Source: Candidatus Heimdallarchaeota archaeon
GTDB lineage: Archaea > Asgardarchaeota > Heimdallarchaeia > Heimdallarchaeales > Heimdallarchaeaceae
Assembly: GCA_018238545.1 (NCBI GenBank)
Contig: JABCTC010000018.1
Location: 6,310 to 70,309 of the forward strand
Length of the DNA stretch: 64,000 nt
Reading direction: 5' to 3'
Positions 10,612 through 62,938 of the stretch are shown here, piece after piece (position 1 is the first letter of the stretch; each line of letters opens with the position of its first letter). Below the pieces are notes generated by a model. The model was not told where the DNA came from. It saw nothing but the letters and a program-made list of their open reading frames with translations, and made no database searches. A program made the position numbers and the translations under genes.

Positions 10612-13332
10612 TTAGCTACTTCCAAGACCTATAGCTTTGTATTTTACCTCTGATACTATAAAATGCTCATGGTCATATGCTCTTCTTCCATCAATCAAGA
10701 CAGGATTTCTCATCAATTCTAAAAACCTACCGGGAGAAATATCTTTGAATTCTTTCCATTCAGTTACTAGAATGCACCCATCAGCTGATTTTAGCACTTC
10801 TTCAATAGAGTTTACTAGATGCAAATTTTCATTTTCTATTTCCTTTTCGAAATTCTTCATGGCTATTGGATCTGTTGCATACACAATTGCTCCTTCTTCA
10901 AGCAACGTTTCTATAATAGGTACTGAGACAGCATCTCTCACGTCATCTGTATCGGGTTTAAAAGCAAGTCCCAATATTGCAATTTTTTTGTCTTTAAGTG
11001 ATTCTCCATCGTAAGTCTCCTTGAGTAATTGAATTGCACGTAAAGGTTGAATCTTATTTGTTTCAATTGTGGCTTCTAGGAGTTTTGAGGGAACCTTAAG
11101 TTCTTTTGATTTCTGGAACAAAGCAGAAACGTCTTTTGGGAAACAATTGTGAACAATAAAACCACTAGTTGATACAAAGGTGTGAGGACTACTTTCCATT
11201 TCTATTGAATAAACATCAATCTCTGCTGTCTTCTTAGTAATATTGTTAATTCTCAAACTAGCAAAACCATCATATTTCACATATCCCATAGGTTTAACAT
11301 CTCTTTTTTGTGCCAACAAAGTATCAGTCATTTTCACATTTGTTTTCTGATCGAAGAATTTCAAATCATTAACCTGTGATTTACCGAAAACACGAATAAT
11401 GTGTGCTGGTGTTGTTGATTTCTTCATCCACTGCTTCTTATAAGAAGGAATAATGTTTAAAGATTGGAGAAGTACAATAATCCCTTCAGCTAGTTCTTTG
11501 CTTACAGTTCCATATTCTATTGTTATTGCTCTAGCATGTTTATGAAAGTAAACACTTCCATCACCTCTGAAAAGCCCTTTTAAGACATTAAATTTAGACT
11601 CTTTGTTTTCGGTGTAAATAAGAGCTGGTAATCTTTTTGTATATGAATCAGTTCCGCAATTGAAATATTTGTCCAGGATATAGGCTAGCACCTTTGATGA
11701 AACAAGTATTGTGGTACATTGTCCCTTTGAAACCAAACTGAATCGAATCTTCAATTTTTCAAGAATACTGCAAACATCCCCTATATATTCTCCTTCGTTT
11801 GAATTGAAGGAAAATCCAATTCTTGCCCTAATACCTCTTTTTCCTTTTTCATAAGTAATATGTCCTTCAGCTAAATAATAACCTATTAAACGCCAGAAAT
11901 CTGCATCCATACTGATAACTGTAGGGATGTACGTAGGAGTACCTTGAGTTGTATATATGTAATATTCATCCAGTTTGAAAGGTAATAGATTTTTCTTAAT
12001 TAAGTATTGGAAGAATTTCAATGGTAGATAATTATTTCTAACTAAATCATATACTTTCCAATCTGATTCTTGAATTTGTCTAATGACACGATACAATACT
12101 TCTTTGTACTCCTTTAGATCATGTTTCAAAGGTCTAAATTTCAAGAAATCAATATTATCTTTTGCAATTTCATATACATTTAGCTTCTTTTTTCTACATA
12201 CTGGATAACTTGTCAATACAGGGAGTCTATTCCCCTCTCTTACGTCCATTGCTAATGTTATTTCCAAATTACCATTATTTTCAATTAACATTGGATGATC
12301 TTTAGTTACAGAAATTTCTCTTCCCATTTTAGTATGGAATGTTATAATTTCTCCTTTATACTCTCTCTTGGAGAAATGCTTTACTTCCTCTACAAAAGAA
12401 TTATGACCATCAAAGGATATTGCTCTAATATTTGTATTTGAATGGTATCTCAGGTATAATTCTTCTGAAGTAGCAATTTCAGGAGTTGAATTTCCTAATA
12501 GAATGAAATCATTTCCAGTTATACAACTTCCACCATATCCTAACCCAGCTCGGAGAAATTTACTTGAAATTCTCTCATCCATTCCAACACCCTGTGCTAT
12601 GGAACTGACATCACTACCAATTTTCTCAGCAATATTTGCTATTTCATTGATAAAAGAAATTTTCATTGCTAAGAATGAGTTGGATGCAAGTTTGATTATC
12701 TCAGCTGTTGTTGGATCTACTTGAAGAATAGGAGCTTCAAACCCCTCATAGGTTTTTGCAATTAACTGCTGAGCTCTTTCATCATTCCCGCCAATTACTA
12801 TTCTATCTGGTGCTAGAAAATCCTTCAAAGCTACTCCTTCACGTAGAAATTCTGGGTTCATACCTACTCCAAAATCCTTACCAGAAGTCAATTTACTGTT
12901 TTCAAGTATTGGTTTCACAATGTCAGTTGTAGTTCCTGGATTACAAGTGCTCTTAACCACTACAACTTTGTATTCTTGACCTTCTTCGAATGTCTTTGCT
13001 ATTGATGTAGCAGCTGATCTAACATATTTATCATCAAGTAATCCATTTGAGAATGAAGGTGTTCCAACACATATGAAAATGATTTCTGATTTTTGTATTG
13101 CTTCTTTGAAATCCAAAGTTGCTTCTAATTTCCCTTCTTCCACAACTTGTTTTAACATTTCTTCTAACCCTTCCTCATATATCGGGGGGATAGCTTGGTT
13201 AATCATATCCACCTTTTCTTGAATAACATCTACACAAATAACATCATGCCCTTTATGTGCAAAACAAGCACCAGTAACAAGTCCCACATATCCTGTCCCA
13301 ATTATAGCTATTTTCATAATCTTCATTCTCAT
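10612..13332 (-). CDS. ugd: UDP-glucose 6-dehydrogenase interrupted by an intein
   Basis: N-terminus MKIAIIGTGYVGLVTGACFA... is the UDPGDH Rossmann motif. Extein sequence ...GYGGS | CITGNDF...FIVHN | CFPKDVS reconstitutes the catalytic-Cys motif GGSCFPKD. The C-terminal half carries LAFKPDTDDVR and typical UDPGDH C-terminal domain features. The start is probably at one of the Met codons at 13317, 13324 or 13332. Confidence 0.9.
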   Translation of the reverse strand: MRMKIMKIAIIGTGYVGLVTGACFAHKGHDVICVDVIQEKVDMINQAIPPIYEEGLEEMLKQVVEEGKLEATLDFKEAIQKSEIIFICVGTPSFSNGLLDDKYVRSAATSIAKTFEEGQEYKVVVVKSTCNPGTTTDIVKPILENSKLTSGKDFGVGMNPEFLREGVALKDFLAPDRIVIGGNDERAQQLIAKTYEGFEAPILQVDPTTAEIIKLASNSFLAMKISFINEIANIAEKIGSDVSSIAQGVGMDERISSKFLRAGLGYGGSCITGNDFILLGNSTPEIATSEELYLRYHSNTNIRAISFDGHNSFVEEVKHFSKREYKGEIITFHTKMGREISVTKDHPMLIENNGNLEITLAMDVREGNRLPVLTSYPVCRKKKLNVYEIAKDNIDFLKFRPLKHDLKEYKEVLYRVIRQIQESDWKVYDLVRNNYLPLKFFQYLIKKNLLPFKLDEYYIYTTQGTPTYIPTVISMDADFWRLIGYYLAEGHITYEKGKRGIRARIGFSFNSNEGEYIGDVCSILEKLKIRFSLVSKGQCTTILVSSKVLAYILDKYFNCGTDSYTKRLPALIYTENKESKFNVLKGLFRGDGSVYFHKHARAITIEYGTVSKELAEGIIVLLQSLNIIPSYKKQWMKKSTTPAHIIRVFGKSQVNDLKFFDQKTNVKMTDTLLAQKRDVKPMGYVKYDGFASLRINNITKKTAEIDVYSIEMESSPHTFVSTSGFIVHNCFPKDVSALFQKSKELKVPSKLLEATIETNKIQPLRAIQLLKETYDGESLKDKKIAILGLAFKPDTDDVRDAVSVPIIETLLEEGAIVYATDPIAMKNFEKEIENENLHLVNSIEEVLKSADGCILVTEWKEFKDISPGRFLELMRNPVLIDGRRAYDHEHFIVSEVKYKAIGLGSS
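11146..12525 (-). mobile_element. Intein (about 460 aa) with LAGLIDADG homing-endonuclease domain, inserted at the catalytic Cys of UDP-glucose dehydrogenase
   Basis: The intein begins with Cys (CITGNDFILLG) and ends ...FIVHN followed by a +1 Cys. LAGLIDADG-like blocks LIGYYLAEGHI and LKGLFRGDGSVYF are present. Boundaries were derived by counting residues 270-729 of the ORF. Confidence 0.8.
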
Positions 13333-42805: not shown

Positions 42806-44521
42806 TTATTCTACCTCATCTTCTTCTTGAATCTTATCTTTTAGCTGCTTCAATTCATTTTTCAGATCAATTATATCTTCTTTCAGATTATTCATTTCAT
42901 AATCTAGCTCATGGATATCCTTGGTAATTTTGCTAACTTTCTTAAAATCATCTTCAGAATCTATTTGACACAGCATAGTTTTTTGTATGCTTAATTCTGT
43001 TTCTAATTCTTTATACAAGGTCTCTAATTGCTTATCCTTGAGCATAATTTCTTCCCGTGTTCTCTCTAACCTTCCTCTCTCCTTCTTCAATTTCTTAATA
43101 AGTTCAAGAAGCTCGCTACGACATTTCTCAAGATCTGTTTTGTTGCTTACTGAGTTATCTTGACAATCACAAATATCTTCATCTAATTTTTCTAGCTCTT
43201 TTTCATATTTCTTTATTTTCTTTTCATCAGTTTCTGTAGCTAGCAATATCTTAATCTCTTTCATGTCTCGCTCTTTTTCTTTGATTTCTGTTTTTAATTC
43301 ACTTATATCTTCTTTGTATTTTTGCTCAGTTTTGTTATACTTCTCTATCTCTTTCTCAAGATCCTCGATTTTCTTTTCAAATTCCTTTAGCTCTTTATCC
43401 TTATCTGAGGATGTGAGTTTTACCTCTTCGATTTGATTATTAAGTGTAAGTATTTCATGTTCAATTTGAGCGAATTTATCAAAATCTTCCTTAATGTCGA
43501 CAATTTCTTTTAGATTCTTTTCCTTTTCTAGCTTAGCTTCTAATTCCTTGTATCTCTCTTGTATTTGAAGATCTTTAGATTGGATTTCAATTTCTACACT
43601 AGTAATCCTACTTTTGTCAGCTTCTAGCTTCTGTTTAAGATTATCGAGTTCGATCTTTATGTCTAGAACTTTTTGTTCGGCAATCTCGGATTTCTCTGCA
43701 ATTTCCTCAGTTTCTGCAATTAGAACCTGAAGTTTAGATGCATCCTTTTCTTCTTCAGGAGCGTTTTCTAATATTTGTTTCTTTTTGTTATTTTCACGTA
43801 AAGTTCGATTCAAATCCTTAACAGTATCTTGTTTGATTTTGACCTCTTTAGAGACCAACTCAATTCTTTCCTCTTCAAGAACAAGTTTATCCTTAATTTG
43901 TGATGTTTCTTCTACTGACTGTTCTTTTTCAACTTCTAATTTTTTGATACTATCTGTTAATTCTTGGATTTCTAGCTCGATTTTTTCTATATTTGATATA
44001 TCTGATTTGGATGCGCCTAATAGGGTTTGAAGTTCTTTCTGTTTAGCTAATTTCTCATCCATGTTTTCATAAAGATGCTTTAAATCTCTATCTTTCCTTC
44101 GAATATCTCGTTCGATCAAATCCATTTGACCTATATCCATTAATTTCTCAATTTTTGTGACATACCTCTTGATAGAATTGATTTGAAGTTCTCCGTCAAC
44201 AACAAGTTTTCTAAAAAACAATGCTAAATTAGAGTTTTCACCAAGTCTTATGAAAAGAATGTCAACACTTTCAGTATCGAATAATAACTGAGTATAATTT
44301 TTGAAATCATAATTACAAATTTCATAGAGTTTTCTGAAGCTAGAAAGAATATCAGCTAAATCTTCACCTAGTTTTGGTATGTTTACTGATTCTTCAAATT
44401 GCTCAAATGTGGTTTGAAAAACTGTTCCATCGTCGAAAAACATAGCTATGTGTTCGACTTCTGGGAGTGCTCTTCTAATTCTATCTATTGTTTTATGTAT
44501 TTTTTGTGCCATTTTTTTCAC
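42806..44521 (-). CDS. Roadblock/LC7-like N-terminal domain fused to a long coiled-coil region of about 450 aa
   Basis: N-terminus EHIAMFFDDGTVFQTT...DLADILSSF...LLFDTESVDILFIRLGENSNLALFF fits the roadblock pattern. The remainder is E/K/L-rich heptad-like sequence throughout. The start is either the GTG at 44521 or the ATG at 44512, 1-10 nt from the upstream permease stop. Confidence 0.6.
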   Translation of the reverse strand: MKKMAQKIHKTIDRIRRALPEVEHIAMFFDDGTVFQTTFEQFEESVNIPKLGEDLADILSSFRKLYEICNYDFKNYTQLLFDTESVDILFIRLGENSNLALFFRKLVVDGELQINSIKRYVTKIEKLMDIGQMDLIERDIRRKDRDLKHLYENMDEKLAKQKELQTLLGASKSDISNIEKIELEIQELTDSIKKLEVEKEQSVEETSQIKDKLVLEEERIELVSKEVKIKQDTVKDLNRTLRENNKKKQILENAPEEEKDASKLQVLIAETEEIAEKSEIAEQKVLDIKIELDNLKQKLEADKSRITSVEIEIQSKDLQIQERYKELEAKLEKEKNLKEIVDIKEDFDKFAQIEHEILTLNNQIEEVKLTSSDKDKELKEFEKKIEDLEKEIEKYNKTEQKYKEDISELKTEIKEKERDMKEIKILLATETDEKKIKKYEKELEKLDEDICDCQDNSVSNKTDLEKCRSELLELIKKLKKERGRLERTREEIMLKDKQLETLYKELETELSIQKTMLCQIDSEDDFKKVSKITKDIHELDYEMNNLKEDIIDLKNELKQLKDKIQEEDEVE

Positions 44522-46243: not shown

Positions 46244-49200
46244 TTAATTTCTTCTTTTTCTTAAAGCAAAAGTTAGAGCTAGAAGTGTAAGTACAGAAGC
46301 GAATAGAAAAATACTCGATTGGTTAGTGTCTTCAGGATGATCTTCTGGATCGGTAGGATCGGTACCATAAGTAAACAATTCTTCACTATCACTCCAACCA
46401 TCACCATCAGTATCAGAATTGTTGGGATTAGTGTTTTGATAATACTCGTCTAAATTGGTTAAAGTATCACCATCAGGATCGTAACCTGCATCATTGACTG
46501 AAGGATCAAGGCCATTATCGACTTCCCAACCGTCAGGCATGCCATCGTAGTCAGAATCAGTGCTATTTGGGTCAGAATTGTAAGAATATTCTTCGAGATT
46601 AGTCAAACCGTCACCATCAAGATCTGAAGAAGCATCAGAAGGATTTAATGGGTCAAGACCATTATCATATTCCCAACCATCGGGCATCAAATCATCATCA
46701 GTGTCACTGTCGAGAGGATCTGTATTAGTATTCATATATTCCTCGTAGTTAGATAAACCATCCGCGTCAGGATCTTCACCACCATCATGAACAAGAGGAT
46801 TTGTGCCATATTCAACTTCCCAGTCATCCCACATCGAGTCATAATCTGTGTCCCAATATTGAGGATTAGTTCCATGAGTATATTCTTCAAGGTTAGTCAA
46901 TGTATCGCCATCAGGATCTAAAGCAGAATCATCGGATAAAGGATTGAGACTATTGTCGACTTCCCAGCCATCAGGCATCAAATCATCATCAGAATCGGAA
47001 TCTTGAGGGTCAGTACCAATGGTATATTCGTCCAAATTATACAATCCATCACTATCAAGGTCAGAATATGCATCATCAACCAAAGGGTTGAGAGTGTTAT
47101 CAACTTCCCAGCCGTCAGGCATGGAATCACCATCTGTGTCGTCGTTATTTGGATCAGTGTTATTAGTATATTCTTCAAGGTTAGTCAATGTATCGCCATC
47201 AGGATCTAAAGCAGAATCATCAATCTCAGTATTCAGTCCATGTTGGTCTTCCCAGATATCATTCATTCCATCGTTATCAAAATCGTAAAATGAGGGATAA
47301 TCAGTGTTATCAGTAGGGTCAGTACCAAGTGTAACTTCTAAACCATCATTAAATCCATCATCGTCTGAATCAGTATCTAGAGGATAAGTACCAATAGTAT
47401 ATTCTTCAAGATTAGTTAAATCATCACTATCAGGATCTAAAGAAGAATCATCAACGAGAGGATTAAGACCGTTATCAACTTCCCAGCCGTCAGGCATGGA
47501 ATCACTATCTGTATCACTATCATTTGGATTAGTTCCCCAAGCAATTTCTTCATCATCCAAAAGCCCATCATCGTCTGAATCAGCGTCATTTGGATCAGTG
47601 TCATTAGTATATTCTTCAAGATTAGTTAAATTATCACTATCGGAATCTAAAGAAGAATCATCAACAAGAGGGTTGAGGCCGTTATCTACTTCCCAGCCAT
47701 CGGGAATTAAATCATTGTCTGAATCAGCGTCATTTGGATCAGTGTTATTAGTATATTCTTCGAGATTGGTTAAATCGTCACTGTCTGGATCTAATGAAGC
47801 ATCAGAAGCATCTAGTGGGTTAAGACTATTATCAACTTCCCAGCCATCTAGCATTAAATCATTGTCTGAATCAGCGTCATTTGGATCAGTGTCATTAGTA
47901 TATTCTTCAAGGTTGGATAAACCATCACTATCGGAATCTAAAGAAGAATCATCAACAAGAGGATCGAGACCATTATCAACTTCCCAACCATCAGGCATCA
48001 AATCATCATCAGAATCAACGTCATTTGGATTAGTTCCAGCTACTACTTCTTCATTATCTAATAGTCCATCACCGTCTGAGTCTGGGTCGAGAGGGTCGGT
48101 GCCCGCAGTATATTCTTGAAGATTAGTCAATGTATCGCCATCAGGGTCTAATGCAGAATCATCAACAAGTGGGTTGAGACTATTGTCCACTTCCCAACCA
48201 TCAGGCATGCCATCGTCATCTGAGTCGGAATCATTGGGGTCGGTTCCAGCTGCTACCTCTTCATTATCAAGTAGTCCATCATTGTCGGAATCATTATCGT
48301 TTGGATCAGTATCATTAGTATATTCTTCAAGGTTAGTCAATGTATCGCCATCAGGATCTAAAGAAGAATCATCAACAAGAGGATCGAGACCATTATCAAC
48401 TTCCCAACCATCAGGCATCAAATCGTCATCAGAGTCGGAATCTTGAGGGTCAGTACCATTAGTATATTCGCCTAAATTGTCCAAACCATCACTATCAGGA
48501 TCTAAAGAAGAATCATCAACTAAGGGATTAAGACCATTGTCCACTTCCCAATTATCTGGCATCAAATCATCGTCAGAATCGTTGTCATTGGGGTCGGTAT
48601 TATTTGTGTATTCTTCGATATTGGTTAAACCGTCACCATCTGGATCTAAAGAAGAATCATCAACTAAAGGATCGAGACCATTGTCGACTTCCCAGCCATC
48701 GGGCATTAAATCATCATCAGAGTCATTATCATTGGGATCTGTTCCTTGAATATATTCACCATAATTATCCAAACCATCACTATCAGGATCTAAAGAAGAA
48801 TCATCAACCAAAGGATTAAGGCTGTTATCAACTTCCCAGCCATCAGGCATCAAATCGTTGTCTGTGTCATTGTCGTTTGGATCGGTTCCAGCTACAATCT
48901 CTTCATTATCTAAGAGTCCGTCATCATCAGAGTCATTGTCATGGGGGTCAGTGTTATTTGTATATTCTTGGAGGTTGGTCAGACTATCTCCATCAGGATC
49001 TAAAGCAGAATCATCAACGAGAGGATCGAGACCATTATCGACTTCCCAACCATCGGGCATGGAATCGCTATCTGTGTCATTGTTGTTAGGGTCTGTTCCA
49101 TATAGATATTTTTCTTCTCTATCATCTATCCCATCATTATCTGTATCTATTACGTTCAATGGGTAGAGGTCTACTCCGTTTCCTGGACCGCTTATTGCAT

Positions 49201-50593
49201 AAGTTCCTGTTTCATTCCAATTTGACCAATAATTTCCTTCATTTGTATTCACGTCATACCAAGTATTTACTGTATCACCGTACGCTTGTGAATCTTGCCC
49301 TATACTGTTGTTTATGAAGATATTATGATATATTCTGTTAGGGTTGGAACCGCCTAAATATAATCCATAACCATATTCCGATACTTCATTATAATTGTTT
49401 ACAAAAATATTGTTAGTTATATTGGAATAACTTGCCCAAAATGTATGTAGTCCATATCCATTGTTCTTACTACATGTATTATTATCAATGATAGAATAAT
49501 AAGGACCTAAGATATATATTCCAGCGTTGCTGTTATTCTCACAAGTATTATTTGTAACTACATTACTTGAATACCTAAGATACATTCCATAGATGTCGTT
49601 GTTATTGCAAGTGTTGTTGGTTACAGTTGTAGAATCAGATTCATAGACATATATCCCTGAATTGTCATTATTTGCACAGGTATTGTTCGCAACATTTGTA
49701 TTTGCAGCATATTCAATATAGATTCCATTCACATTTCCTGTACAAGTATTTTCTGCAACAGTTGGAGAAGAAGAAGCTTCAGCAATATGAATTCCGTTAT
49801 TACCGTTGTTCTCAATAGTATTGTTTCTTATTTCAGGATAAGCTGTCCAACGAATTCGTAGCCCATACCCAGTATTTTCTGAACAGGTATTGTCAGTCAC
49901 AGTTGCATTATTACCATTATAATCGATATATATACCTAGAGCATTACTTTCACAAGTATTGTTATCAATGATTACTGATGCACTATTATAACTGTATATT
50001 CCATTGCCTGAATTGTTTGAGCATATGTTGTTTGTTATGGTAGAATTAGTTGATTTCCATAGAACAATACCATCAGTATTGTCTGTACATACATTCCCGT
50101 CAATTGTAGTATTCAGACTTTGCAGTATGTACATTCCATATTGAGCATTATTTGCACAAGTATTATTTATTACTTTAGCTGTTCCCGCAGCAACACCAGT
50201 GATACGTATTCCATAGTTCAATCCATCTAAATAATTATCACGAATAACAAAATGCATTGTCGTACCTGTAACGTAAATAGCTGTGTCGTCAGTTGTTGTA
50301 ATGTTATAATTATTTATTATATACGGATCACCTTCACTTCCATCCCCTGAAGTACTAGAAGCTGCCAAAGTAGCATTATTCCATATATAAATATCTTCTG
50401 TAAGTTCTACGTAAGCCATCTTATTATAGTCTTGATCGTTAGGCATGTATACTTCACTATCAAAACTAGGTTCTACTGTGCTTGTATTAACCAAATTGAA
50501 ACTGATTGCAACACTCATAACTAAGCACAAAGCCAGAAAAATTGAAACTCCTTTTTTATAGGATCCAAAATATTTTTTTAAATTATTTATCAC
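46244..50593 (-). CDS. Giant cell-surface protein: signal peptide, right-handed beta-helix (NosD/pectin-lyase-like) domain, about forty EF-hand-like Ca-binding repeats, C-terminal TM anchor
   Basis: N-terminal hydrophobic signal (ISIFLALCLVMSVAISF). Residues 100-470 have repeated NNTC.(N)N..GIYI beta-helix rungs. Residues 480-1410 are tandem units of about 45 aa alternating DSDDDLMPDGWE and DPDGDGLTNLEEY, each fitting the 12-residue EF loop D-x-D-x-D-G-x-x-x-x-x-E. C-terminus SSIFLFASVLTLLALTFALRKRRN. Confidence 0.85.
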   Translation of the reverse strand: MINNLKKYFGSYKKGVSIFLALCLVMSVAISFNLVNTSTVEPSFDSEVYMPNDQDYNKMAYVELTEDIYIWNNATLAASSTSGDGSEGDPYIINNYNITTTDDTAIYVTGTTMHFVIRDNYLDGLNYGIRITGVAAGTAKVINNTCANNAQYGMYILQSLNTTIDGNVCTDNTDGIVLWKSTNSTITNNICSNNSGNGIYSYNSASVIIDNNTCESNALGIYIDYNGNNATVTDNTCSENTGYGLRIRWTAYPEIRNNTIENNGNNGIHIAEASSSPTVAENTCTGNVNGIYIEYAANTNVANNTCANNDNSGIYVYESDSTTVTNNTCNNNDIYGMYLRYSSNVVTNNTCENNSNAGIYILGPYYSIIDNNTCSKNNGYGLHTFWASYSNITNNIFVNNYNEVSEYGYGLYLGGSNPNRIYHNIFINNSIGQDSQAYGDTVNTWYDVNTNEGNYWSNWNETGTYAISGPGNGVDLYPLNVIDTDNDGIDDREEKYLYGTDPNNNDTDSDSMPDGWEVDNGLDPLVDDSALDPDGDSLTNLQEYTNNTDPHDNDSDDDGLLDNEEIVAGTDPNDNDTDNDLMPDGWEVDNSLNPLVDDSSLDPDSDGLDNYGEYIQGTDPNDNDSDDDLMPDGWEVDNGLDPLVDDSSLDPDGDGLTNIEEYTNNTDPNDNDSDDDLMPDNWEVDNGLNPLVDDSSLDPDSDGLDNLGEYTNGTDPQDSDSDDDLMPDGWEVDNGLDPLVDDSSLDPDGDTLTNLEEYTNDTDPNDNDSDNDGLLDNEEVAAGTDPNDSDSDDDGMPDGWEVDNSLNPLVDDSALDPDGDTLTNLQEYTAGTDPLDPDSDGDGLLDNEEVVAGTNPNDVDSDDDLMPDGWEVDNGLDPLVDDSSLDSDSDGLSNLEEYTNDTDPNDADSDNDLMLDGWEVDNSLNPLDASDASLDPDSDDLTNLEEYTNNTDPNDADSDNDLIPDGWEVDNGLNPLVDDSSLDSDSDNLTNLEEYTNDTDPNDADSDDDGLLDDEEIAWGTNPNDSDTDSDSMPDGWEVDNGLNPLVDDSSLDPDSDDLTNLEEYTIGTYPLDTDSDDDGFNDGLEVTLGTDPTDNTDYPSFYDFDNDGMNDIWEDQHGLNTEIDDSALDPDGDTLTNLEEYTNNTDPNNDDTDGDSMPDGWEVDNTLNPLVDDAYSDLDSDGLYNLDEYTIGTDPQDSDSDDDLMPDGWEVDNSLNPLSDDSALDPDGDTLTNLEEYTHGTNPQYWDTDYDSMWDDWEVEYGTNPLVHDGGEDPDADGLSNYEEYMNTNTDPLDSDTDDDLMPDGWEYDNGLDPLNPSDASSDLDGDGLTNLEEYSYNSDPNSTDSDYDGMPDGWEVDNGLDPSVNDAGYDPDGDTLTNLDEYYQNTNPNNSDTDGDGWSDSEELFTYGTDPTDPEDHPEDTNQSSIFLFASVLTLLALTFALRKRRN
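46360..49160 (-). repeat. Tandem coding repeats (thrombospondin-type-3-like / EF-loop calcium-binding units)
   Basis: About 20 near-identical units of about 135 nt. These produce the spurious Ser-rich antisense ORFs on the + strand (47496..48119 and others). Confidence 0.8.
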
Positions 50594-50840
50594 TAAATAT
50601 TCCCCTTTTTAAAGCAATTAGATTATCTTTGAAGTTGCTATTTAAGTATATTGAATTGTAGTTACACAGATTTAGAATTAATACACAAATTTAGTGTAAA
50701 TTATTCTAAAACAAATTTAAACAACAGCCAATGAAGACGCTAGCCTTATAAGTTTTTCAAATTCTCTAACTTCATGAGGGGTTATTTTGTACAAAACTAT
50801 AAAAGTTGAGGTCTTTTTATAAGAAAATTAACATAGAAGA

Positions 50841-52067
50841 ATGATGTTAATTAAAGGGAAAGAATCAGCAAAATGGATAGAAACAACCATCCCTTTAATA
50901 CTTAATCCAGGAACAACAAAGCAGCTTTATTTGCAGAAAGCTCAAGCTAAGATCCTAGCTTTCGCTAAACAGTTGCTACCTTTTAAACAGCATAGTGCTT
51001 CAGCTCTACACTTCCACCATCTGGTCTATACAAAGTTCAAGTATCTAGGCATACAAAGTCAAGTACAAGAAGCGGTGCAGCGGAGAGTGTATGCAGCAAA
51101 ACGAGCGAAAACGTTCGCTCATCTACCTATGGAATTTAATTTTCCGCGGAGTGGGAGGCTCATTCTCTCCAAGAGAGGGAACGCACTTGTTAAACTCTCT
51201 CCTCTCAAACAACGTATAGCCGTACCTATCTTGATGAACGGTGGGTGGAGAAGAGTGGAAGAGCACAGAAAAGGAGGGTGGGAGGCTCACAGCTGTAAAG
51301 TGTTCAAAAGAAAACGTATCTGGGTTATGCATCTTATCATGCGTAAAGCACTCCCACTTCCCCAAGAAGTGGAAGGAACCATCGGTGTGGACATAGGAAG
51401 AAAGATCATGGCAGCAATCACGGTCAATCATCCTAATTTTCCCTTTGTTGAACAATATCTTGGGAAAGATCTGGCGTGGAAACAACACCAGTTCTATAAT
51501 CGTAGAAAAACCTTGCAAAAATATGCTGCGCAAGGAGATAGACGTGCACGGCGTGCACTCAACAGATTACGAAGAAAAGAAACAACTTATGTTCAAACCC
51601 GTTGTGCTCAACTAGCACACGAAATAGTAGACTTAGCTGTAATCACCCGTTCAGCTATAGTTTTGGAAAATCTTACGCATTTACGAAGAATGTGGACAAA
51701 ACAAGCGATGAAACGAAAGAGAGGAGGGAAGAAGACCAGACGTGCACTCAATCGCTGGTCATACAGTCTCTTTCATACTACTTTGACTCGAGTAGCACAA
51801 TTACACCATGTTCCTGTGGTATTTGTCCGTCCGCAATATACCAGTCAAACCTGCTCACAGTGTGGACATCGAAGTAAGAACTCACGAACCACTCGTGACC
51901 TATTTAGGTGTGTCAATTGTAATTTCACTGTTAACGCTGACCGCAATGCATCACGTAACCTAGCACTGCTAGGGCAAGTAGTTTTTGGTCTCCCCTTCTT
52001 CAATGCTTATCGATCTTTCCTTCCCGTTCCTACTGAGCGAAGAATCCTGCGTTCTTCAGTATCTTAG
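50841..52067 (+). CDS. tnpB: TnpB (IS605 OrfB-family RNA-guided nuclease-like transposon protein)
   Basis: RuvC-I IGVDIGRKIMAAI (Asp), RuvC-II AIVLENLTHL (Glu), a zinc finger CSQCGH...CVNCNF, and RuvC-III NADRNASRNLA (Asp). All catalytic residues are intact. Confidence 0.85.
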   Translation: MMLIKGKESAKWIETTIPLILNPGTTKQLYLQKAQAKILAFAKQLLPFKQHSASALHFHHLVYTKFKYLGIQSQVQEAVQRRVYAAKRAKTFAHLPMEFNFPRSGRLILSKRGNALVKLSPLKQRIAVPILMNGGWRRVEEHRKGGWEAHSCKVFKRKRIWVMHLIMRKALPLPQEVEGTIGVDIGRKIMAAITVNHPNFPFVEQYLGKDLAWKQHQFYNRRKTLQKYAAQGDRRARRALNRLRRKETTYVQTRCAQLAHEIVDLAVITRSAIVLENLTHLRRMWTKQAMKRKRGGKKTRRALNRWSYSLFHTTLTRVAQLHHVPVVFVRPQYTSQTCSQCGHRSKNSRTTRDLFRCVNCNFTVNADRNASRNLALLGQVVFGLPFFNAYRSFLPVPTERRILRSSVS

Positions 52068-52150
52068 GCTAAGGTGCGCTCACCCACCTTCTATGGCGCG
52101 ATGAAAGTTCAATCCCTGTTGATTGACTTGAGTGCAAGAGAAATGTATAA
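52030..52150 (+). ncRNA. Candidate omega-RNA (reRNA) scaffold at the tnpB right end
   Basis: It overlaps the 3' end of tnpB and extends about 80 nt. Two short hairpins are visible by eye. GC content reverts to background at about 52150. Assignment is by analogy to characterised TnpB systems. Confidence 0.35.
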
Positions 52151-52579
52151 ATGCAAATTTGTACAAAAATCAAGTTGATGAGCTATGAAATCTTAGATAT
52201 AGATCTAGAAAGCATAGATGACGACTCGTTGGAACTTATTGTAGATTATCTGAAAAAAAGTGAAATACAGGAATATCCTAAGGATCCTGTTCCTCCACGT
52301 GAAGCAATGCTTAAAGACATCAAACTAAAGCGAGAAGGAAAAGATAGTTTTCTAAGTGTTGTTTTGGATAAAAAAAGAGGACAAATCATAGCTAGAGCAA
52401 CAATTTCTGTGAAATTAGAAAATCACGTTGCATATAATCAAGCGAAGCATGTAGCAGATTTTGATCTAACAGTTTTGAAAGATTTTGTTCATTTAGAAAT
52501 CATTGAAAAACTATTCACATCTGTAATCAGTAAAGTGGAAAATTATGATTTTATATTTAACTTCTACAGTTTCTCTTAG
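52151..52579 (+). CDS. Hypothetical small acidic protein
   Basis: 142-aa ORF directly after the IS end, with no motifs. It could be spurious. Confidence 0.25.
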   Translation: MQICTKIKLMSYEILDIDLESIDDDSLELIVDYLKKSEIQEYPKDPVPPREAMLKDIKLKREGKDSFLSVVLDKKRGQIIARATISVKLENHVAYNQAKHVADFDLTVLKDFVHLEIIEKLFTSVISKVENYDFIFNFYSFS

Positions 52580-55342: not shown

Positions 55343-57121
55343 TTACTTCTTCTTGGTTTTAGGTTTAGCTGTAGATTTCATCTTACTGTTAATAAGAGTA
55401 ATAGTTAACAAGAAAAATATCAGTTGTGAACCTAAAACAATTCCAGAAAAGATTAGTAACTCACCAATTTCGAGTGAAGCGAAGATACCAGTAGAAGTTT
55501 CTTCTATAACTTCAACAAACTCAACATTAGAGACAAGACTGTCTCCGTATTCATTTATAGCTACAATGGCGTAATAATAGTAACCGGTTGCATTAACAGT
55601 ATCAGTATAAGATGCAGTAGTAGAAGTATCTATTGGTGTTAATCCTGAAACTGAGGAGAATTGAGATGTTTCTCTAAATATTTCATAATTTGTTGCATCT
55701 TGTACTGATGACCAGCTCAAAAAAATATTTCCAACAGAGATAGGGTTTGGATTTATCTCATCTAAGACGGGTTGTATAGGAGTTCCTACGAATTTCTTGT
55801 AGAAAAGATCATTATCTGCACCTGAACCTAATAAACTTGGATCATTATCGAGGAAAATCGTATGCACATGACCTAAAGAATCAACTGCTAAATCTGGGTA
55901 GAAAGAACTAGCTATGTGGTTGTAAGTAAGAATAGCTAAAGAAGACCAAGTGTGTGTATTTAAATCAAGATACTTGAATAAGATATTATTACCTGTACCT
56001 CCTCCACCAACATCTGTAGTATCTTCCCAAATAACATAAATACTATTTGTACCGTCAACATCAACTTCTGGACGAAAAGCAGTTCCTGTACTCTCTGTTG
56101 AAACAATGTCTGATATTGACCATGAATCAAGACTGGAGTCATAGCTCTTATAGAAAATATCAGCGTCAGTTCCTGCTCCTTCATAATCTGAATAGTCGTA
56201 CCAAACAATGTGAATCATACCATCTACTCCTTTAGAAAGACTAGGTGATGCAGATGTGCTATCACTTTCGGAACTTATTAATTTTAAAGGAGACCAAGTA
56301 ATGAGATCTTTGTCCAGTTGTCGATAAAATACATCTTGGTCAGTACCAGCTCCTAAAACATCTGAGAGATCATTCCAAGCTATTATTACGTTTTCTTGTG
56401 AATCAAGTTGTATTTCTGGATTATATGCAGATTGTATACTTAAATCCGTAACTATTTCAGCTGCGGACCAAATCCCTACTGCAGATCTATGTTTGTAATA
56501 AATATCTTGATCCCCATCAACGATTATGATATCTGCAAAATCCTCCCAAACAACATGTGTTACACCATTTGAATCAGCTACTATCGATACGTAAGTAGAT
56601 GTACTGTCACTTTCTACTGAAACAAGTTCAACTGCTCCCCATCCAGAAGAAGTTTTTCCCCTATAACAGATATCTCTATCAGGACCTGATCCCAAAATAT
56701 CATCTGATTCAAGCCATACTATATGTATTGAGCCTGCTGAATCAATAGCAATTTCAGACACTTCAGAAAAACTTGAACTACCAGTTGATACAAGTTCTAG
56801 TTCAGACCAGCTCTTAGTTACATAATCAAATTTCTTATAAAACACGTCTAAGTCAGTTCCTGCACTCAGAATATCTTCACCTGAGGAGGTTACTATGTGT
56901 ATATCATTTCTGTTATCAACAGCGATTCTAGAATAAGAATTAGGTGTATCAAATTCTGTGGAAATTAGTTCCAGTGGTTCCCACCACCAAGAAGATAGAT
57001 CTTTGTTATTTACAGATTGTTCTGTCATATTCTCATATATCATTGAGTTTGTTAACGAAGATATTGGAATTATCATTAACAACATTATCATAAAAATACT
57101 AGCAATTCTTTTCAATTTCAC
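55343..57121 (-). CDS. Surface protein: signal peptide, about 7 beta-propeller-like repeats, FN3-like domain, C-terminal TM helix + Lys-rich tail
   Basis: MKLKRIASIFMIMLLMIIPISS signal. Seven units of about 55 aa of the form W.xLElvStxS....S.iA.Ds.G.iHivW.d.sDiLGsGtD.DifYk. FN3-like segment PISVGNIFLSWSS...YEIFRET...YYYAIVAINEYGDS. C-terminus LLIFSGIVLGSQLIFFLLTITLINSKMKSTAKPKTKKK. Confidence 0.75.
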   Translation of the reverse strand: MKLKRIASIFMIMLLMIIPISSLTNSMIYENMTEQSVNNKDLSSWWWEPLELISTEFDTPNSYSRIAVDNRNDIHIVTSSGEDILSAGTDLDVFYKKFDYVTKSWSELELVSTGSSSFSEVSEIAIDSAGSIHIVWLESDDILGSGPDRDICYRGKTSSGWGAVELVSVESDSTSTYVSIVADSNGVTHVVWEDFADIIIVDGDQDIYYKHRSAVGIWSAAEIVTDLSIQSAYNPEIQLDSQENVIIAWNDLSDVLGAGTDQDVFYRQLDKDLITWSPLKLISSESDSTSASPSLSKGVDGMIHIVWYDYSDYEGAGTDADIFYKSYDSSLDSWSISDIVSTESTGTAFRPEVDVDGTNSIYVIWEDTTDVGGGGTGNNILFKYLDLNTHTWSSLAILTYNHIASSFYPDLAVDSLGHVHTIFLDNDPSLLGSGADNDLFYKKFVGTPIQPVLDEINPNPISVGNIFLSWSSVQDATNYEIFRETSQFSSVSGLTPIDTSTTASYTDTVNATGYYYYAIVAINEYGDSLVSNVEFVEVIEETSTGIFASLEIGELLIFSGIVLGSQLIFFLLTITLINSKMKSTAKPKTKKK

Positions 57122-57291: not shown

Positions 57292-59076
57292 TTACTTTTT
57301 CTTCTTTCCTGTTTTAGGTTTGGACGTAGATTGAATTTTACTATTAATAAGAGTAATAGTTAGCAAGAAAAATATCAGTTGTAAGCCTAGAACAATTCCA
57401 GAAAAGATTAGTAACTCGCCAATTCCGAGTGAAGAAAAGATACCTGTAGAAGTTTCTTCTATGACTTCAACAAACTCAACATTTGAGACAAGGCTTTCTC
57501 CGTATTCATTTGTCGCTACTACAGCGTAATAATAGTACCCGGTGGCATTAACAGTGTCAGTATAAGATGTTAATGTAGAAGTGTCTATTGCCGTCAATCC
57601 TGAAACTGAGGAGAATTGAGATGTTTCTCGATATATTTCATAATTTATTACATCTTTTGCTGATGACCAGCTCAAAGAAATATTTCCAATAGAGAGAGGA
57701 TTTGGGTTTATTTCAGCTAAGATTGGTTGCATAGGTGTTCCTACAAATTTCTTGTAAAAAAGGTCCCAATCTGAACCAGAGCCTAGTAAACTTCCATCAG
57801 TATCAAGAAAAATAGCATGAACATGTCCTAAGGAGTCAACTGCTAAATCTGGATTAGTAGAAGCAGATGCATGATCATAAGTAAGAATAGTTCGAGAAGA
57901 CCAAGTGTGTGTATTTAAATCAAGATACTTAAAAAAGATATTAGTACCAATACCCACGCCACCAACAGCTAAAGAATCTTGCCAAATAACATAAACATAT
58001 TCTGTACCATAAACATCAATCTCTGCATTAAAAGAACTTCCAGTATTCGCGGTTGAAACAACTTCCGTGACGGACAACGAATCTAGATTGGAATCATAAT
58101 ACCTATAGAGAATATCAGAGTCAGTTCCTGAGCCCAAGATATCAGAAGAATCTTGCCAAACAATATGGAGCTGACCTTCTACACCTTTAGAGATTTTAGG
58201 TCCTGTAGAGCTGAGATCACTTCCAGAACTAATTAATTTAATGGGAGACCAAGTGATGAGGTCTTTATTCAGTTTTCGATAGAAAACATCTCCGTCAGGA
58301 CCAGAACCTAAAATATCTGTGAGATCATACCAAACAATAAAAATATTTTCTTGGGAATCAAGTTGAATATCTGGATTATATGTGGAAGATGTACTCATAT
58401 CAGTAACTATTTCAGCTGCTGACCATATTCCTGCTGCAGATCTATGTTTGTAATAAATATCTTGATCCCCATCAGCAATTAAGTAATTTGCAAAATCCTC
58501 CCAAATCACATGTGCGACACCATTTGAATCAGCTATAATCGCTAAGTAAGTTGATGTACTGTCACTTTCTGTTGAAACAAGTTCAGTAGATCCCCATCCA
58601 GAAGAAGTTTTTTGCCTATAACAGATATCTCTATCGGTACCTGAACCCAAAATGTTATCTGATTCAAGCCAAGCTATATGTACGGTTCCCGATGGATCAA
58701 CTGCAATTTCTGATACTTCAGAAGCACCCGAACTATCTGTTGAAACAAGTTCAAGTTCAGACCAGCTCTTTGTCTCATAAATATATTTCTTATAAAAAAC
58801 ATCTCTATCAGTTCCTGCACTCAAAATATCATCAGTGGAGTAGGTTATAACATGTATATTATTCTGGATATCAATAGCAATTTTAGGTACATAATTATTG
58901 GCATCAGATTCAGCAGAGAGAAGCTCTAAGGGTTCCCACCACCAAGAAGATAGATCATTATCAATTACGTTCTGATTTGTCATATTATCATAAATCTTTG
59001 AGTTTGTTAACGAAGAAATAGGAATTATCATTAACAACATTAGCATAAAAACACAAGCAATTCTTTTCACTTTCAC
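57292..59076 (-). CDS. Surface beta-propeller-repeat / FN3 / TM-anchored protein (paralog)
   Basis: Same architecture as 55343..57121 and about 70% identical. Ends ...LINSKIQSTSKPKTGKKKK. Confidence 0.75.
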   Translation of the reverse strand: MKVKRIACVFMLMLLMIIPISSLTNSKIYDNMTNQNVIDNDLSSWWWEPLELLSAESDANNYVPKIAIDIQNNIHVITYSTDDILSAGTDRDVFYKKYIYETKSWSELELVSTDSSGASEVSEIAVDPSGTVHIAWLESDNILGSGTDRDICYRQKTSSGWGSTELVSTESDSTSTYLAIIADSNGVAHVIWEDFANYLIADGDQDIYYKHRSAAGIWSAAEIVTDMSTSSTYNPDIQLDSQENIFIVWYDLTDILGSGPDGDVFYRKLNKDLITWSPIKLISSGSDLSSTGPKISKGVEGQLHIVWQDSSDILGSGTDSDILYRYYDSNLDSLSVTEVVSTANTGSSFNAEIDVYGTEYVYVIWQDSLAVGGVGIGTNIFFKYLDLNTHTWSSRTILTYDHASASTNPDLAVDSLGHVHAIFLDTDGSLLGSGSDWDLFYKKFVGTPMQPILAEINPNPLSIGNISLSWSSAKDVINYEIYRETSQFSSVSGLTAIDTSTLTSYTDTVNATGYYYYAVVATNEYGESLVSNVEFVEVIEETSTGIFSSLGIGELLIFSGIVLGLQLIFFLLTITLINSKIQSTSKPKTGKKKK

Positions 59077-61114: not shown

Positions 61115-62938
61115 TTACTTCTTCTTCTTACCTGTTTTCTTACCTGACTTTTTTGATGCAGATTTCTTACTCTTTGATGAGAGTAGGTAATACAAAATTA
61201 CAGCAATTAAAATCTCAGCACCTAGTAGGATCCCTCCTAAAATTAGTAACATATTCCAGTCAAAATTGTCAAAGAAACCAGGACCGTCTGATTCACTTAA
61301 GATTTCAACATAAACAACATTAGATAAAACACTATCACCATAATCAGAAACGGCAACTACAGCATAATAGTAGGTATTGGGAGTGGTTATAGTATCTACA
61401 AAACTACCGCTTAAACTATTCCCTATAGATGTTAAACTAGATATGTCTGTAATAAATGTCGTATCTTTATATATTTTATAAGAGGTTGCTCCAAGTGTTT
61501 CCACCCACCTGAGATTAACTTGGGTATTAGTTGTGCTTTTAGGATAGATCTCTAACAAAAATGGACTGGAAGGAGAACCAACAAATTTCTTGTAAAATAA
61601 GTCATAATCAGTTCCTGCTCCATCAAAATCTGTATTGTCTGCCCACAAAGCGTGAATATAACCCTTTGAATCAGCTGTTAAGCTATACATGTACTGAGAA
61701 CTCCAGTCTATACTTTCACTTGATACATAAGTGGGTGGAGACCATTCATCAGACCCAAATAATTTGGTTTTATGGTATAACCTATAGGTTTCAACTCCAA
61801 AGTATAGATCTTCATAAATGATATGAAGATTATCAAATAGATCTACACAGATATCTGAACGATCTGTTTGTCCTAGACTATCATCTGTGATAATTTCTGT
61901 TGTTAACGACCATTGATCTTGAACAGAATCCCAACTTGCATAGTATAAATCATCGAGTAAATCTGAATCATAAGAAGGTATTTGATCACTCCAAATAATA
62001 TGAACAGAATTTTGTGAATCTGAGCATATAGAAGGATAAGAAGAAAGCTCGTCACTTTCAGGTGAAAGTAGTATGAGTGGATAATCCCAGAGACCGGTGT
62101 TCAGATCTTTTTTATAGTAATATATGTCAATATCAGTTCCATCAGAGTTAAAGTCATGACTTTCCATCCACACAAAATGAGCTATGTTGTCTGAACTAAC
62201 TGTAATAGCAGCAGATGTTGATGCACTATCACTCAAAAGTGAAATTAATTCAGGGGATGACCATAAACCTGTACTGATTGAACGTGTCTGATAGAATACG
62301 TCCATATCAGCCCCTACTGAACCATAGGGAGTCATATCTGTATATACTACATGCACATTACCTGAAGAATCTACATCCATGTCAGGAAGATAAGCAATAG
62401 CTAAACTTTGTGATGTTACAACCTCGACTGGTGACCAAGTATCTGTTATATTATTGTAGTTTATGTAAAATAAGTCTTCATCACTTCCACTACTTAGCAA
62501 ATCATTAGTATTATCGCTCCAGACAATGTGTATGTTATCTTGTCCATCGATGACTATCTGTGCATCTCTACAAAAAGTACTAGCAGTACTATCTACAGAA
62601 ATGAGAAATGGAGAACTCCATACTTCAGTTGTAGAATCCCATTTCATGTACCATATATCACTATCCGTTCCCGATATTGAACCATAATCTTGCTTATCTC
62701 GCCAAACTGCATGAATATTTTCTTGACTATCAATTGCCATTTCTGGGTACCAGGATTCAAGCCCACTTGTTGTTGTCAGAACTTCTGTTTCTGTCCAGTA
62801 CCATTCTGAATAGTCATAATTTGTCAATGAATGATCCTGTTCAACACCGTTTTCTAAAGATAGACCTTTACTCGAAAATGAAAATGATGTTACAAAGAGC
62901 AGTATCATTAAAATACATGCTAATTTTTCTTTCTTCAT
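61115..62938 (-). CDS. Surface beta-propeller-repeat / FN3 / TM-anchored protein (divergent paralog)
   Basis: MKKEKLACILMILLFVTSFSFSS signal. Repeats IHAVWRD...GTDSDIWY, IHIVWSD...GSDEDLFY and others. FN3-like ...VNLRWVE...YKIYKDT...YYYAVVAVSDYGDS. C-terminus LLILGGILLGAEILIAVILYYLLSSKSKKSASKKSGKKTGKKKK. Confidence 0.75.
   Translation of the reverse strand: MKKEKLACILMILLFVTSFSFSSKGLSLENGVEQDHSLTNYDYSEWYWTETEVLTTTSGLESWYPEMAIDSQENIHAVWRDKQDYGSISGTDSDIWYMKWDSTTEVWSSPFLISVDSTASTFCRDAQIVIDGQDNIHIVWSDNTNDLLSSGSDEDLFYINYNNITDTWSPVEVVTSQSLAIAYLPDMDVDSSGNVHVVYTDMTPYGSVGADMDVFYQTRSISTGLWSSPELISLLSDSASTSAAITVSSDNIAHFVWMESHDFNSDGTDIDIYYYKKDLNTGLWDYPLILLSPESDELSSYPSICSDSQNSVHIIWSDQIPSYDSDLLDDLYYASWDSVQDQWSLTTEIITDDSLGQTDRSDICVDLFDNLHIIYEDLYFGVETYRLYHKTKLFGSDEWSPPTYVSSESIDWSSQYMYSLTADSKGYIHALWADNTDFDGAGTDYDLFYKKFVGSPSSPFLLEIYPKSTTNTQVNLRWVETLGATSYKIYKDTTFITDISSLTSIGNSLSGSFVDTITTPNTYYYAVVAVSDYGDSVLSNVVYVEILSESDGPGFFDNFDWNMLLILGGILLGAEILIAVILYYLLSSKSKKSASKKSGKKTGKKKK

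Follow-up and report, generated by a model that had tools for sequence, protein, structure and literature searches.

We analysed a stretch of 64,000 nucleotides (nt) of Candidatus Heimdallarchaeota archaeon (contig JABCTC010000018.1 of assembly GCA_018238545.1), called the window here, in whose numbering all positions are given. Our focus was a gene on its minus strand whose product of 1449 amino acids (aa) joins a beta-helix domain to a long array of putative calcium-binding loops, and which probably is a stalked surface protein. The reading frame given for it in the first-pass annotation of this DNA proved to be real, being present in the open reading frame (ORF) listing with a GTG start and having intact syntenic orthologues. 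An exact-protein look-up found no identical copy on record. The gene, its parts and its upstream region are as follows.

46244-50593, minus strand: complete coding sequence (CDS), 1449 aa, GTG start, stop codon (TAA) included
50474-50593, minus strand: N-terminal signal-type segment (aa 1-40) with a KK..KK n-region and the hydrophobic core VSIFLALCLVMSVAISF, Kyte-Doolittle hydropathy >1.6 at aa 12-22
49148-50407, minus strand: right-handed parallel beta-helix head of the NosD/CASH type with N- and C-terminal caps (aa ~63-482), from Pfam, AlphaFold 2 (AF2) and Foldseek
46337-49147, minus strand: array of 39 putative Ca-loop units (aa 483-1419), 16 of type A, 16 of type B and 7 of type C, from PF18884, AF2 and a pattern scan
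46262-46318, minus strand: predicted C-terminal transmembrane helix SSIFLFASVLTLLALTFAL (aa 1426-1444), from hydropathy, kept in orthologues
46247-46261, minus strand: basic tail RKRRN (aa 1445-1449), predicted to be cytoplasmic, identical in the related loci L011-L013 and in the more distant L015
50602-50605, minus strand: GGGG, a Shine-Dalgarno-like motif 8 nt 5' of the GTG
50594-50773, minus strand: native upstream intergenic region, the presumed promoter, intact beside the gene

A regular-expression scan for non-overlapping D-x-D-x-D-x6-E loops found 39 of them, from aa 483 to 1405. Composition-preserving residue shuffles of aa 483-1419 (2000 trials) gave a mean of 1.1 and a maximum of 5 loops; the loop count is thus far above chance. 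These 937 residues consist of Asp to 26.7% and carry a net charge of -308. The first-pass annotation had described two alternating loop types, but our comparison of the units resolved three: unit A (26 aa, 16 copies, DSDxDLMPDGWEVDNGLNPLVDDSxL), unit B (22 aa, 16 copies, DPDGDxLTNLEEYTNxTDPNDx) and unit C (22 aa, 7 copies, DSDxDGLLDxEExxxGTxPNDx). Asp at positions 1, 3 and 5 and Glu at position 12 are invariant in all 39 loops, as had been claimed, and position 9 is without exception Asp (A and C) or Asn (B). Furthermore, Trp is invariant at position 11 of the A loops, most of which also carry Pro at position 8, and Pro occupies position 2 (DPDxD) in 12 of the 16 B loops. Gly6 is present in just 17 of the 39 loops. 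All 11 cysteines of the protein lie between aa 23 and 374, none of them in aa 483-1419. N-x-S/T sequons number 38 in the protein, 19 of which fall within the array.

These repeats could be placed in the bacterial thrombospondin type 3 (TSP3) family. The model PF18884 TSP3_bac, whose gathering cut-off is 25 bits, scored 89 bits over 7 stretches of the whole protein and 79 bits over 4 stretches of a 92-aa fragment. The array has the period of about 22 residues and the acidic DxDxDGxxDxxE loop of bacterial TSP3 repeats, unit A being a 26-aa variant. The search for TSP type 3 repeats proposed in the first-pass annotation was therefore successful as to the type of repeat, though not with the model PF02412 TSP_3 that had been named for it, which gave no match at E<=0.01 with the whole protein or at E<=10 with three repeat fragments. 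This repeat of 22 aa is shared with Myxococcus CglD and MtsD, the Amuc_1099 family and TSP3-bearing carbohydrate-active enzymes. In these bacterial proteins it is likewise extracellular, acidic and Cys-free and serves as a spacer beside binding or enzymatic domains. The protein described here differs from them in its Asgard host and in combining a NosD-like beta-helix with a C-terminal transmembrane anchor.

High scores were also obtained with several NCBIfam models. NF042425 (Amuc_1099 family pilus-like system protein) reached 222.7 bits against a cut-off of 50, through 12 matches to one model segment: in the best stretch, the A+B double unit (45 aa) aligns 12 times with positions 108-152 of 321. 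Assignment to the Amuc_1099 equivalog was rejected, as the match is not full-length and repeats a single segment. The scores for CglD (94 against 400 bits) and MtsD (118 against 800 bits) stayed below the equivalog cut-offs. What these three models recognise is, as judged from the alignments, the common TSP3 module, repeated.

Two further identities were considered and rejected. Eukaryotic TSP3 repeats, as in thrombospondin and COMP (1ux6, 1yo8, 3fby), resemble the array in their coreless DxDxDG-type loops around Ca2+ and in forming a long acidic array. They consist of N- and C-type motifs of 13 and 23 residues. The array described here, in contrast, has a period of 22 or 26 aa with an exit helix, lacks the disulfide-forming cysteines, and superimposes poorly on the solved type 3 repeats (TM-scores 0.11-0.22, root-mean-square deviation (rmsd) ~13 Å); together with the silent PF02412 this excludes a eukaryotic TSP3 identity. 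The second candidate was the canonical EF-hand. All 39 loops place oxygen ligands at positions 1, 3, 5, 9 and 12, with Glu12, as EF-hands do, and the array shares with EF-hands, dockerins and lanmodulin the 12-residue loop and a helix starting at position 9. It differs from them in lacking the entering helix, the paired four-helix domain and the hydrophobic core. PROSITE PS00018, which calls for Gly or a polar residue at position 6 and a hydrophobic one at position 8, accepted only 4 of the 39 loops, all of type C (at aa 554, 768, 838 and 1005), the Pfam models EF-hand_1/6/7 gave non-significant matches to the repeat fragments (E 0.2-3.6), and dockerin Pfam models had no significant match. Hence, the earlier description of about 40 consecutive canonical EF-hand-like loops was close in number, but the word canonical has to be dropped in view of the scarcity of Gly6 and the failure of 35 loops with PS00018.

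The only other family near its threshold was PF03495, the Ca-binding domain of Binary_toxB and anthrax protective antigen (PA), at a subthreshold 13-22.5 bits on fragments. The A loop, D-S-D-x-D-[LG]-M-P-D-G-W-E, closely resembles the sequence DTDRDGIPDEWE of PA and the clostridial binary-toxin B components (1acc, 2j42), and sequence comparison aligned it with this site in C2 toxin. In these toxins, however, there is one binuclear site inside a folded domain, and the score obtained here is below the gathering threshold.

The predicted structure of the array is regular. AF2 modelled aa 720-885 with a predicted local distance difference test (pLDDT) score of 97.2 and a predicted TM-score (pTM) of 0.84, and DSSP assigned a helix to positions 9-14 of every unit, without an entering helix. 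In a model of aa 41-700, built with 19 family sequences (pLDDT 92.1, pTM 0.76), each loop is likewise followed by a 6-residue helix (6-7 residues across models). A Foldseek search of the repeat model against the PDB gave no global match, and the thrombospondin and COMP structures were the only multi-repeat entries it returned. The best solved structural analogue was found in the B domain of staphylococcal Bap (7c7r), which matched locally over 45 columns with an rmsd of 0.9 Å and 40% identity. By sequence this match is the tandem calcium site DYDKDGLLDRYE...DTDGDGKNDGDE (EF2/EF3), which corresponds to a C+A unit pair. In Bap a single pair lies in a globular domain and acts as a Ca switch for amyloid formation, whereas here 39 units make up the entire stalk.

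We infer with good confidence that the array loops bind Ca2+, because the loop pattern is invariant, because all 195 residues at the ligand positions (1, 3, 5, 9 and 12) are identical in the orthologue described below (other loop positions: 211 of 273, 77%), and because of the close match to the Bap site. It has been shown that mutation of loop positions 1, 3 and 12 of the Bap tandem site abolishes the Ca response (PMC7785521). Moreover, at least 12 structural contexts are known, anthrax PA and thrombospondin among them, in which Dx[DN]xDG loops bind Ca in a near-identical manner (PMC3123361). The calcium-binding role suggested in the first-pass annotation thus is well supported, if indirectly.

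That the array primarily serves metal sequestration or selective metal binding instead of mechanics, as a Ca2+ buffer or in lanmodulin-like lanthanide capture, appears extremely improbable. Lanmodulin (6mi5, 8fns) provided the sole significant PDB matches by sequence (E 5e-4 to 5e-3, which is weak), Bap and C2 toxin being marginal. The Pro2 of the B loops recalls the lanthanide-selective EF loops of lanmodulin (DPDKDG), and 39 sites with a charge of this size would suit a metal sponge. The weak lanmodulin matches, however, can be put down to the similar spacing of generic DxDxDG loops. The presence of the module in more than 45,000 protein clusters, beside very diverse partner domains, argues for a generic structural spacer, and in the family the array is always joined to a head and an anchor.

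The N-terminal parallel beta-helix, for which PF13229 had been named as the check, was confirmed. Profile matches to the head comprised PF13229 Beta_helix (218 bits, 6.8e-65), PF05048 NosD (193.5 bits, 4e-57) and nine matches to TIGR03804; like PF18884, both Pfam models exceeded their gathering cut-offs. In the AF2 model the head has a pLDDT >90 and forms about 16 rungs of three strands up to about aa 440, followed by the C-terminal cap. Foldseek retrieved AlgG (4nk8), AlgE4 (2pyg), NosD (7osf), K1 capsule lyase and other lyases, and tailspikes, with a probability of 1.00 for AlgG, AlgE4 and NosD. These neighbours are CASH-type polysaccharide enzymes or binders at 9-16% identity and an rmsd of 8-11 Å. 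Because they all act on polysaccharides, the head is predicted to be glycan-directed. Fold and profile matches agree in linking it to the NosD/CASH proteins, from which it differs in that it is not a NosD orthologue and has no recognised catalytic motif. NosD proper was rejected: TIGR04247 scored 77.3 bits against a cut-off of 300, and there is no nos operon context, the neighbours of the gene being a CitMHS transporter, a coiled-coil protein and TnpB.

The fold neighbours would also suit a catalytic head, a polysaccharide lyase, epimerase or hydrolase which the stalk would hold as a tethered enzyme off the membrane. AlgG, AlgE4, alginate epimerase/lyase, K1 capsule lyase and tailspike depolymerases are the top fold matches, and TSP3 modules occur in bacterial glucanases such as Saccharophagus Lam16A (PMC2386152). 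We regard an enzymatic head as unlikely, though worth serious consideration, because the similarity to the enzymes is so distant in both identity and rmsd and because the head sequence contains no DPHD-type epimerase motif. Furthermore, most of the columns that are invariant in the family belong to the caps (G83, G85, P90, N429, N454, W456, G469 and D475). Nor is NosD known to be a glycanase.

Two hydrophobic segments only were found in the protein, one at each end (aa 12-30 and aa 1426-1444). The signal-type segment (aa 1-40) is 90% conserved in the orthologue, and the C-terminal helix with its RKRRN tail is present as described in the first-pass annotation. Members of the family share one order of parts: signal segment, beta-helix, TSP3 array and transmembrane helix, followed by either a short basic tail (KKRDN, KKREN, KKKRR or KRRRF) or cytoplasmic domains. 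One homologue (P0001) continues after beta-helix, TSP3 repeats and transmembrane helix into a zf-RING_2 domain (29.5 bits), and another (P0127), with a TSP3 stalk and transmembrane helix and without a listed head, into TIR_2 (47.5 bits). Such relatives, some of them from Asgard metagenome-assembled genomes (MAGs), look like type-I receptors. P0007, P0008 and P0016 have in common a conserved tail of about 120 aa ending in RL[DE]AKY.

A C-terminal helix with a basic tail may also be a cleaved sorting signal for an archaeosortase, exosortase or sortase, in which case the protein would be lipid-anchored or released. The tripartite sequence of polar linker, hydrophobic helix and Arg/Lys tail has this form, and TIGR01167 LPXTG_anchor reached 15.8 bits against a cut-off of 15.9. 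This match, however, covers helix and tail only (model positions 9-34). No LPXTG, PGF, PEF or PEP motif precedes the helix, the preceding sequence being HPEDTNQSS, and CTERM sorting-signal models gave nothing on the C-terminus at E<=10. No archaeosortase gene was found among the window ORFs scanned, a scan which took in part of the ORFs. In addition, relatives run past the helix into RING, TIR and other domains, so in them the helix is a genuine transmembrane segment. With neither a signature motif nor a model above its cut-off, a substrate of such enzymes was rejected as the leading reading, and we consider it decidedly improbable. The two terminal hydrophobic segments, the family layout and the lack of a sorting-signal match instead support a type-I transmembrane anchor. 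The surface location proposed earlier, with such an anchor, fits both the sequence and the family.

A homologue search with the full protein returned matches of up to 47% identity, and pattern-based scans with the N-terminal 520 aa gave best values of 37% in species-representative genomes and 33% in metagenome contigs. The distant homologues come from Heimdall-, Hod-, Thor- and Promethearchaeota and from Thermoplasmata. Closer orthologues surfaced instead through synteny, the loci being reached via the adjacent CitMHS/SLC13 transporter. GCA_054384055.1, GCA_054387835.1 and GCA_054385855.1 each carry an intact orthologue directly upstream of this transporter. From the conserved GTG the orthologue has 1451 aa, is 87% identical over the full length and contains 39 loops in an unchanged order of unit lengths. 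The head, at 94.8% identity, is better conserved than the array, at 83.7%. By the Nei-Gojobori method, the head has a ratio of nonsynonymous to synonymous substitutions (dN/dS) of 0.19 at a dS of 0.12, and the array one of 0.16 at a dS of 0.63. The gene is under purifying selection and strongly constrained. The first-pass annotation had raised the possibility of a pseudogene in related strains; intact orthologues, a dN/dS of about 0.18 and the complete conservation of the ligand residues indicate that the gene is not a pseudogene. As to the host, the phosphoglycerate kinase encoded in the window shares 93% identity with a protein from a MAG of Candidatus Heimdallarchaeaceae, which places the organism in this family.

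On DNA level, Tandem Repeats Finder (TRF) reported periods of 144 nt, from A-B pairs, and of 210 nt, from A-B-C triplets. The repeats had been called perfect, but TRF copies match at 65-83%, identity within the repeat families is 60-81%, and no exact direct repeat is longer than 69 nt. In comparison with the orthologue at locus L011, 16 of the 39 units do not have their positional counterpart as best match, and 18 resemble a paralogous unit of their own gene more closely. These figures and the dS of the array, five-fold that of the head, point to intragenic gene conversion among the units, with unit number and order fixed, which would be a case of concerted evolution. The gene had also been considered prone to recombination. 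This holds in so far as units seem to undergo conversion; the copies have nevertheless diverged, and their number and order are unchanged in the orthologues. ORFs on the opposite strand within the gene (47019-47288, 47496-48119, 48174-48446, 48477-48749 and 48858-49166) were rejected as Ser-rich mirrors of the GAT/GAC-rich repeats and are probably non-coding shadows.

A contig of 3.3 kb from another assembly (JABCSQ010000489.1, GCA_018238805.1) starts within the array and covers the C-terminal 423 aa of the protein at 100% identity. The adjacent transporter is 100% identical as well, and on these two identical matches only the contig looks like the same organism. Its start within the array shows that short-read and MAG assemblies break at the repeat gene. 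Proteins of this type therefore are likely to be under-represented or truncated in databases.

We favour, with a probability of about 0.62, the reading that the gene encodes a membrane-anchored, stalked surface protein in which a Ca2+-binding spacer of 39 TSP3_bac loops presents a glycan-recognising beta-helix head. The protein would be exported via its Sec-type N-terminal signal. The helix at aa 1426-1444 would remain embedded in the membrane and leave the RKRRN tail on the cytoplasmic side, following the positive-inside rule. Between membrane and head, the 937 residues of TSP3_bac/DxDxDG-type loops would form the stalk, each unit consisting of a 12-residue loop with oxygen ligands at positions 1, 3, 5, 9 and 12 and an exit helix of 6-7 residues. 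Binding of presumably at least one Ca2+ per loop would neutralise the charge of -308 and lock the chain in an elongated, defined, non-globular form. The membrane-distal NosD/CASH-type head most likely would bind, and possibly modify, a polysaccharide or glycan on a partner cell, on the cell's own envelope or on a substrate.

Several observations weigh against this reading. The AF2 models are ion-free, and the commonness of the repeat in the training data may partly explain their high confidence. Gly6 is missing from 22 of the 39 loops and A loops have Pro at position 8, so that affinity and stoichiometry may differ from those of EF-hands. For CglD, a bacterial protein with related repeats, Ca2+ caused no detectable change in conformational stability (bioRxiv 10.1101/2023.10.19.562135); rigidification of the stalk is therefore not guaranteed. 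In the family alignment, it is mainly the caps, and not a cleft, that hold the invariant head residues, so that neither a ligand nor a catalytic activity can be assigned to the head from them.

The first-pass annotation had likened the protein to a Ca-stabilised S-layer or adhesin-like fibre. In an S-layer, beta-helix heads would tile a Ca-stabilised two-dimensional lattice held off the membrane by the stalks. Ca dependence is common among S-layers. Long-stalked beta-helix S-layer proteins do exist in bacteria (bioRxiv 10.1101/2024.05.28.596244). Yet Pfam and NCBIfam-type profile scans of the protein gave no match to an S-layer family, and the many divergent, paralog-like members in Asgard MAGs with variable extra domains are atypical of a single structural S-layer protein. 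In a cultured Asgard archaeon, cryo-electron tomography (cryo-ET) revealed surface densities lacking order, but no ordered S-layer (PMC9834061); for Asgard S-layer candidates, attempts to model a lattice were unsuccessful (bioRxiv 10.1101/2024.05.28.596244). We therefore regard the S-layer role as very improbable and retain the stalked surface protein.

The upstream region of the gene is well preserved. The sequence AAAAAGGGGAATATTTAGTG, with the GGGG motif and the GTG start, is identical in the orthologue at L011. Positions 50594-50773 are collinear with and 91% identical to positions 1697-2180 of this locus, and their G+C content of 25-28% resembles host intergenic DNA. Beyond this region lies the following element.

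50779-52177, plus strand: solo TnpB insertion of about 1.4 kb with a CDS at 50841-52067, not a functional part of the gene

TnpB was identified by NF040570 (128.6 bits). The element lacks TnpA, has a G+C content of 42-48% against 25-35% in its flanks, and is absent from the syntenic locus of the three related genomes in the alignment with L011. It is flanked by a 5-bp duplication, ATGAG, at 50774-50778 and 52178-52182, and is, as far as these comparisons go, a strain-specific insertion. The palindrome TTTGTACAAA is located near both ends (~50786-50795 and ~52158-52167). A GC-rich stretch following the TnpB stop codon (roughly 52068-52140) is a possible omega-RNA/right-end region; Rfam gave no match on the element, and Rfam and tRNA scans gave none in the whole window. 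The tnpB element had been placed at the promoter of the surface protein gene. A TnpB neighbour does lie upstream, but the insertion starts 185 nt upstream of the GTG, outside the presumed core promoter, and the native intergenic region is retained on the side of the gene.

The insertion lies at the start codon of a divergent acetyltransferase-like gene (52178-52579, plus strand), whose upstream region it replaces. From the native ATG this gene encodes about 133 aa, whereas its counterpart in relatives has 341 aa. A deletion has removed about 644 nt of its 3' part (L011 685-1328), with an overlap of 11 nt at the junction, 52540-52550. Because of the truncation and the replaced upstream region, it probably is a pseudogene in this strain.

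Further genes of the window were noted. At 42806-44521 (minus strand), a highly charged coiled-coil protein of 571 aa is encoded which has weak similarity only to SMC, Rad50 and archaea-specific SMC-related proteins; relatives keep this protein beside the transporter (565-566 aa, no Pfam match). A UDP-glucose/GDP-mannose dehydrogenase at 10612-13332 (minus strand) is split by an intein with a LAGLIDADG homing-endonuclease domain. Other exported proteins of the window have a layout like that of the surface protein, from a signal to a transmembrane helix and a Lys-rich or basic tail. The genes at 55343-57121, 57292-59076 and 61115-62938 (all minus strand) each encode a protein of about 600 aa that starts with a signal peptide and ends in a transmembrane helix and a Lys-rich tail. 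The first two, whose N-termini are near-identical, are tandem paralogues; one of the proteins gave a weak BNR_4 match (26.2 bits, just under the cut-off). They form a small cluster of further predicted surface proteins.

The repeat module itself is very common and ranks among the most frequent extracellular spacers of prokaryotes. A phmmer search with a 166-aa segment against 1.84 billion cluster representatives returned 45,487 matches at E<=1e-3, 15,699 at E<=1e-10 and 3,154 at E<=1e-30. Among the top matches were an array of 106 loops (P0121) and one of 74 loops with a similar transmembrane-plus-basic tail (P0124). An array of 39 loops is therefore large, not exceptional, and the same applies to the enormous Ca2+-binding capacity once ascribed to it: the capacity would be large, but other arrays reach 106 loops. 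The architecture is built from well-known, widespread parts, and surface proteins with Beta_helix and TSP3_bac domains are routinely annotated. In the library of papers that was searched, none connected thrombospondin-type repeats with Heimdallarchaeia.

Long TSP3_bac arrays are structurally unsolved, and the protein is a convenient source of model fragments, in which Trp11 of the A loops could act as an antenna for Tb3+. The gene also offers a clean example of an array with frozen unit number and order whose units appear to exchange sequence through gene conversion.

The modest value of the finding beyond this rests on the host: few archaea are as closely related to eukaryotes as the Heimdallarchaeaceae. 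Their envelope presumably lacks an S-layer and bears many individual surface proteins, maybe for the cell contacts assumed in models of eukaryogenesis. The 1449-aa protein is conserved, strongly constrained and predicted with confidence in its architecture, and with its 39 putative Ca sites it makes a concrete candidate for a surface structure of this kind. It may be speculated, although we think this quite unlikely, that the complex surface densities seen in Asgard archaea by cryo-ET are Ca-dependent stalks with glycan-binding heads for syntrophic contact. The relatives with RING or TIR domains would then be type-I signalling receptors, and the tail-less form described here a pure adhesin or decoy. 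If true, these proteins would be an archaeal counterpart of the single-pass adhesion and receptor proteins of eukaryotes.

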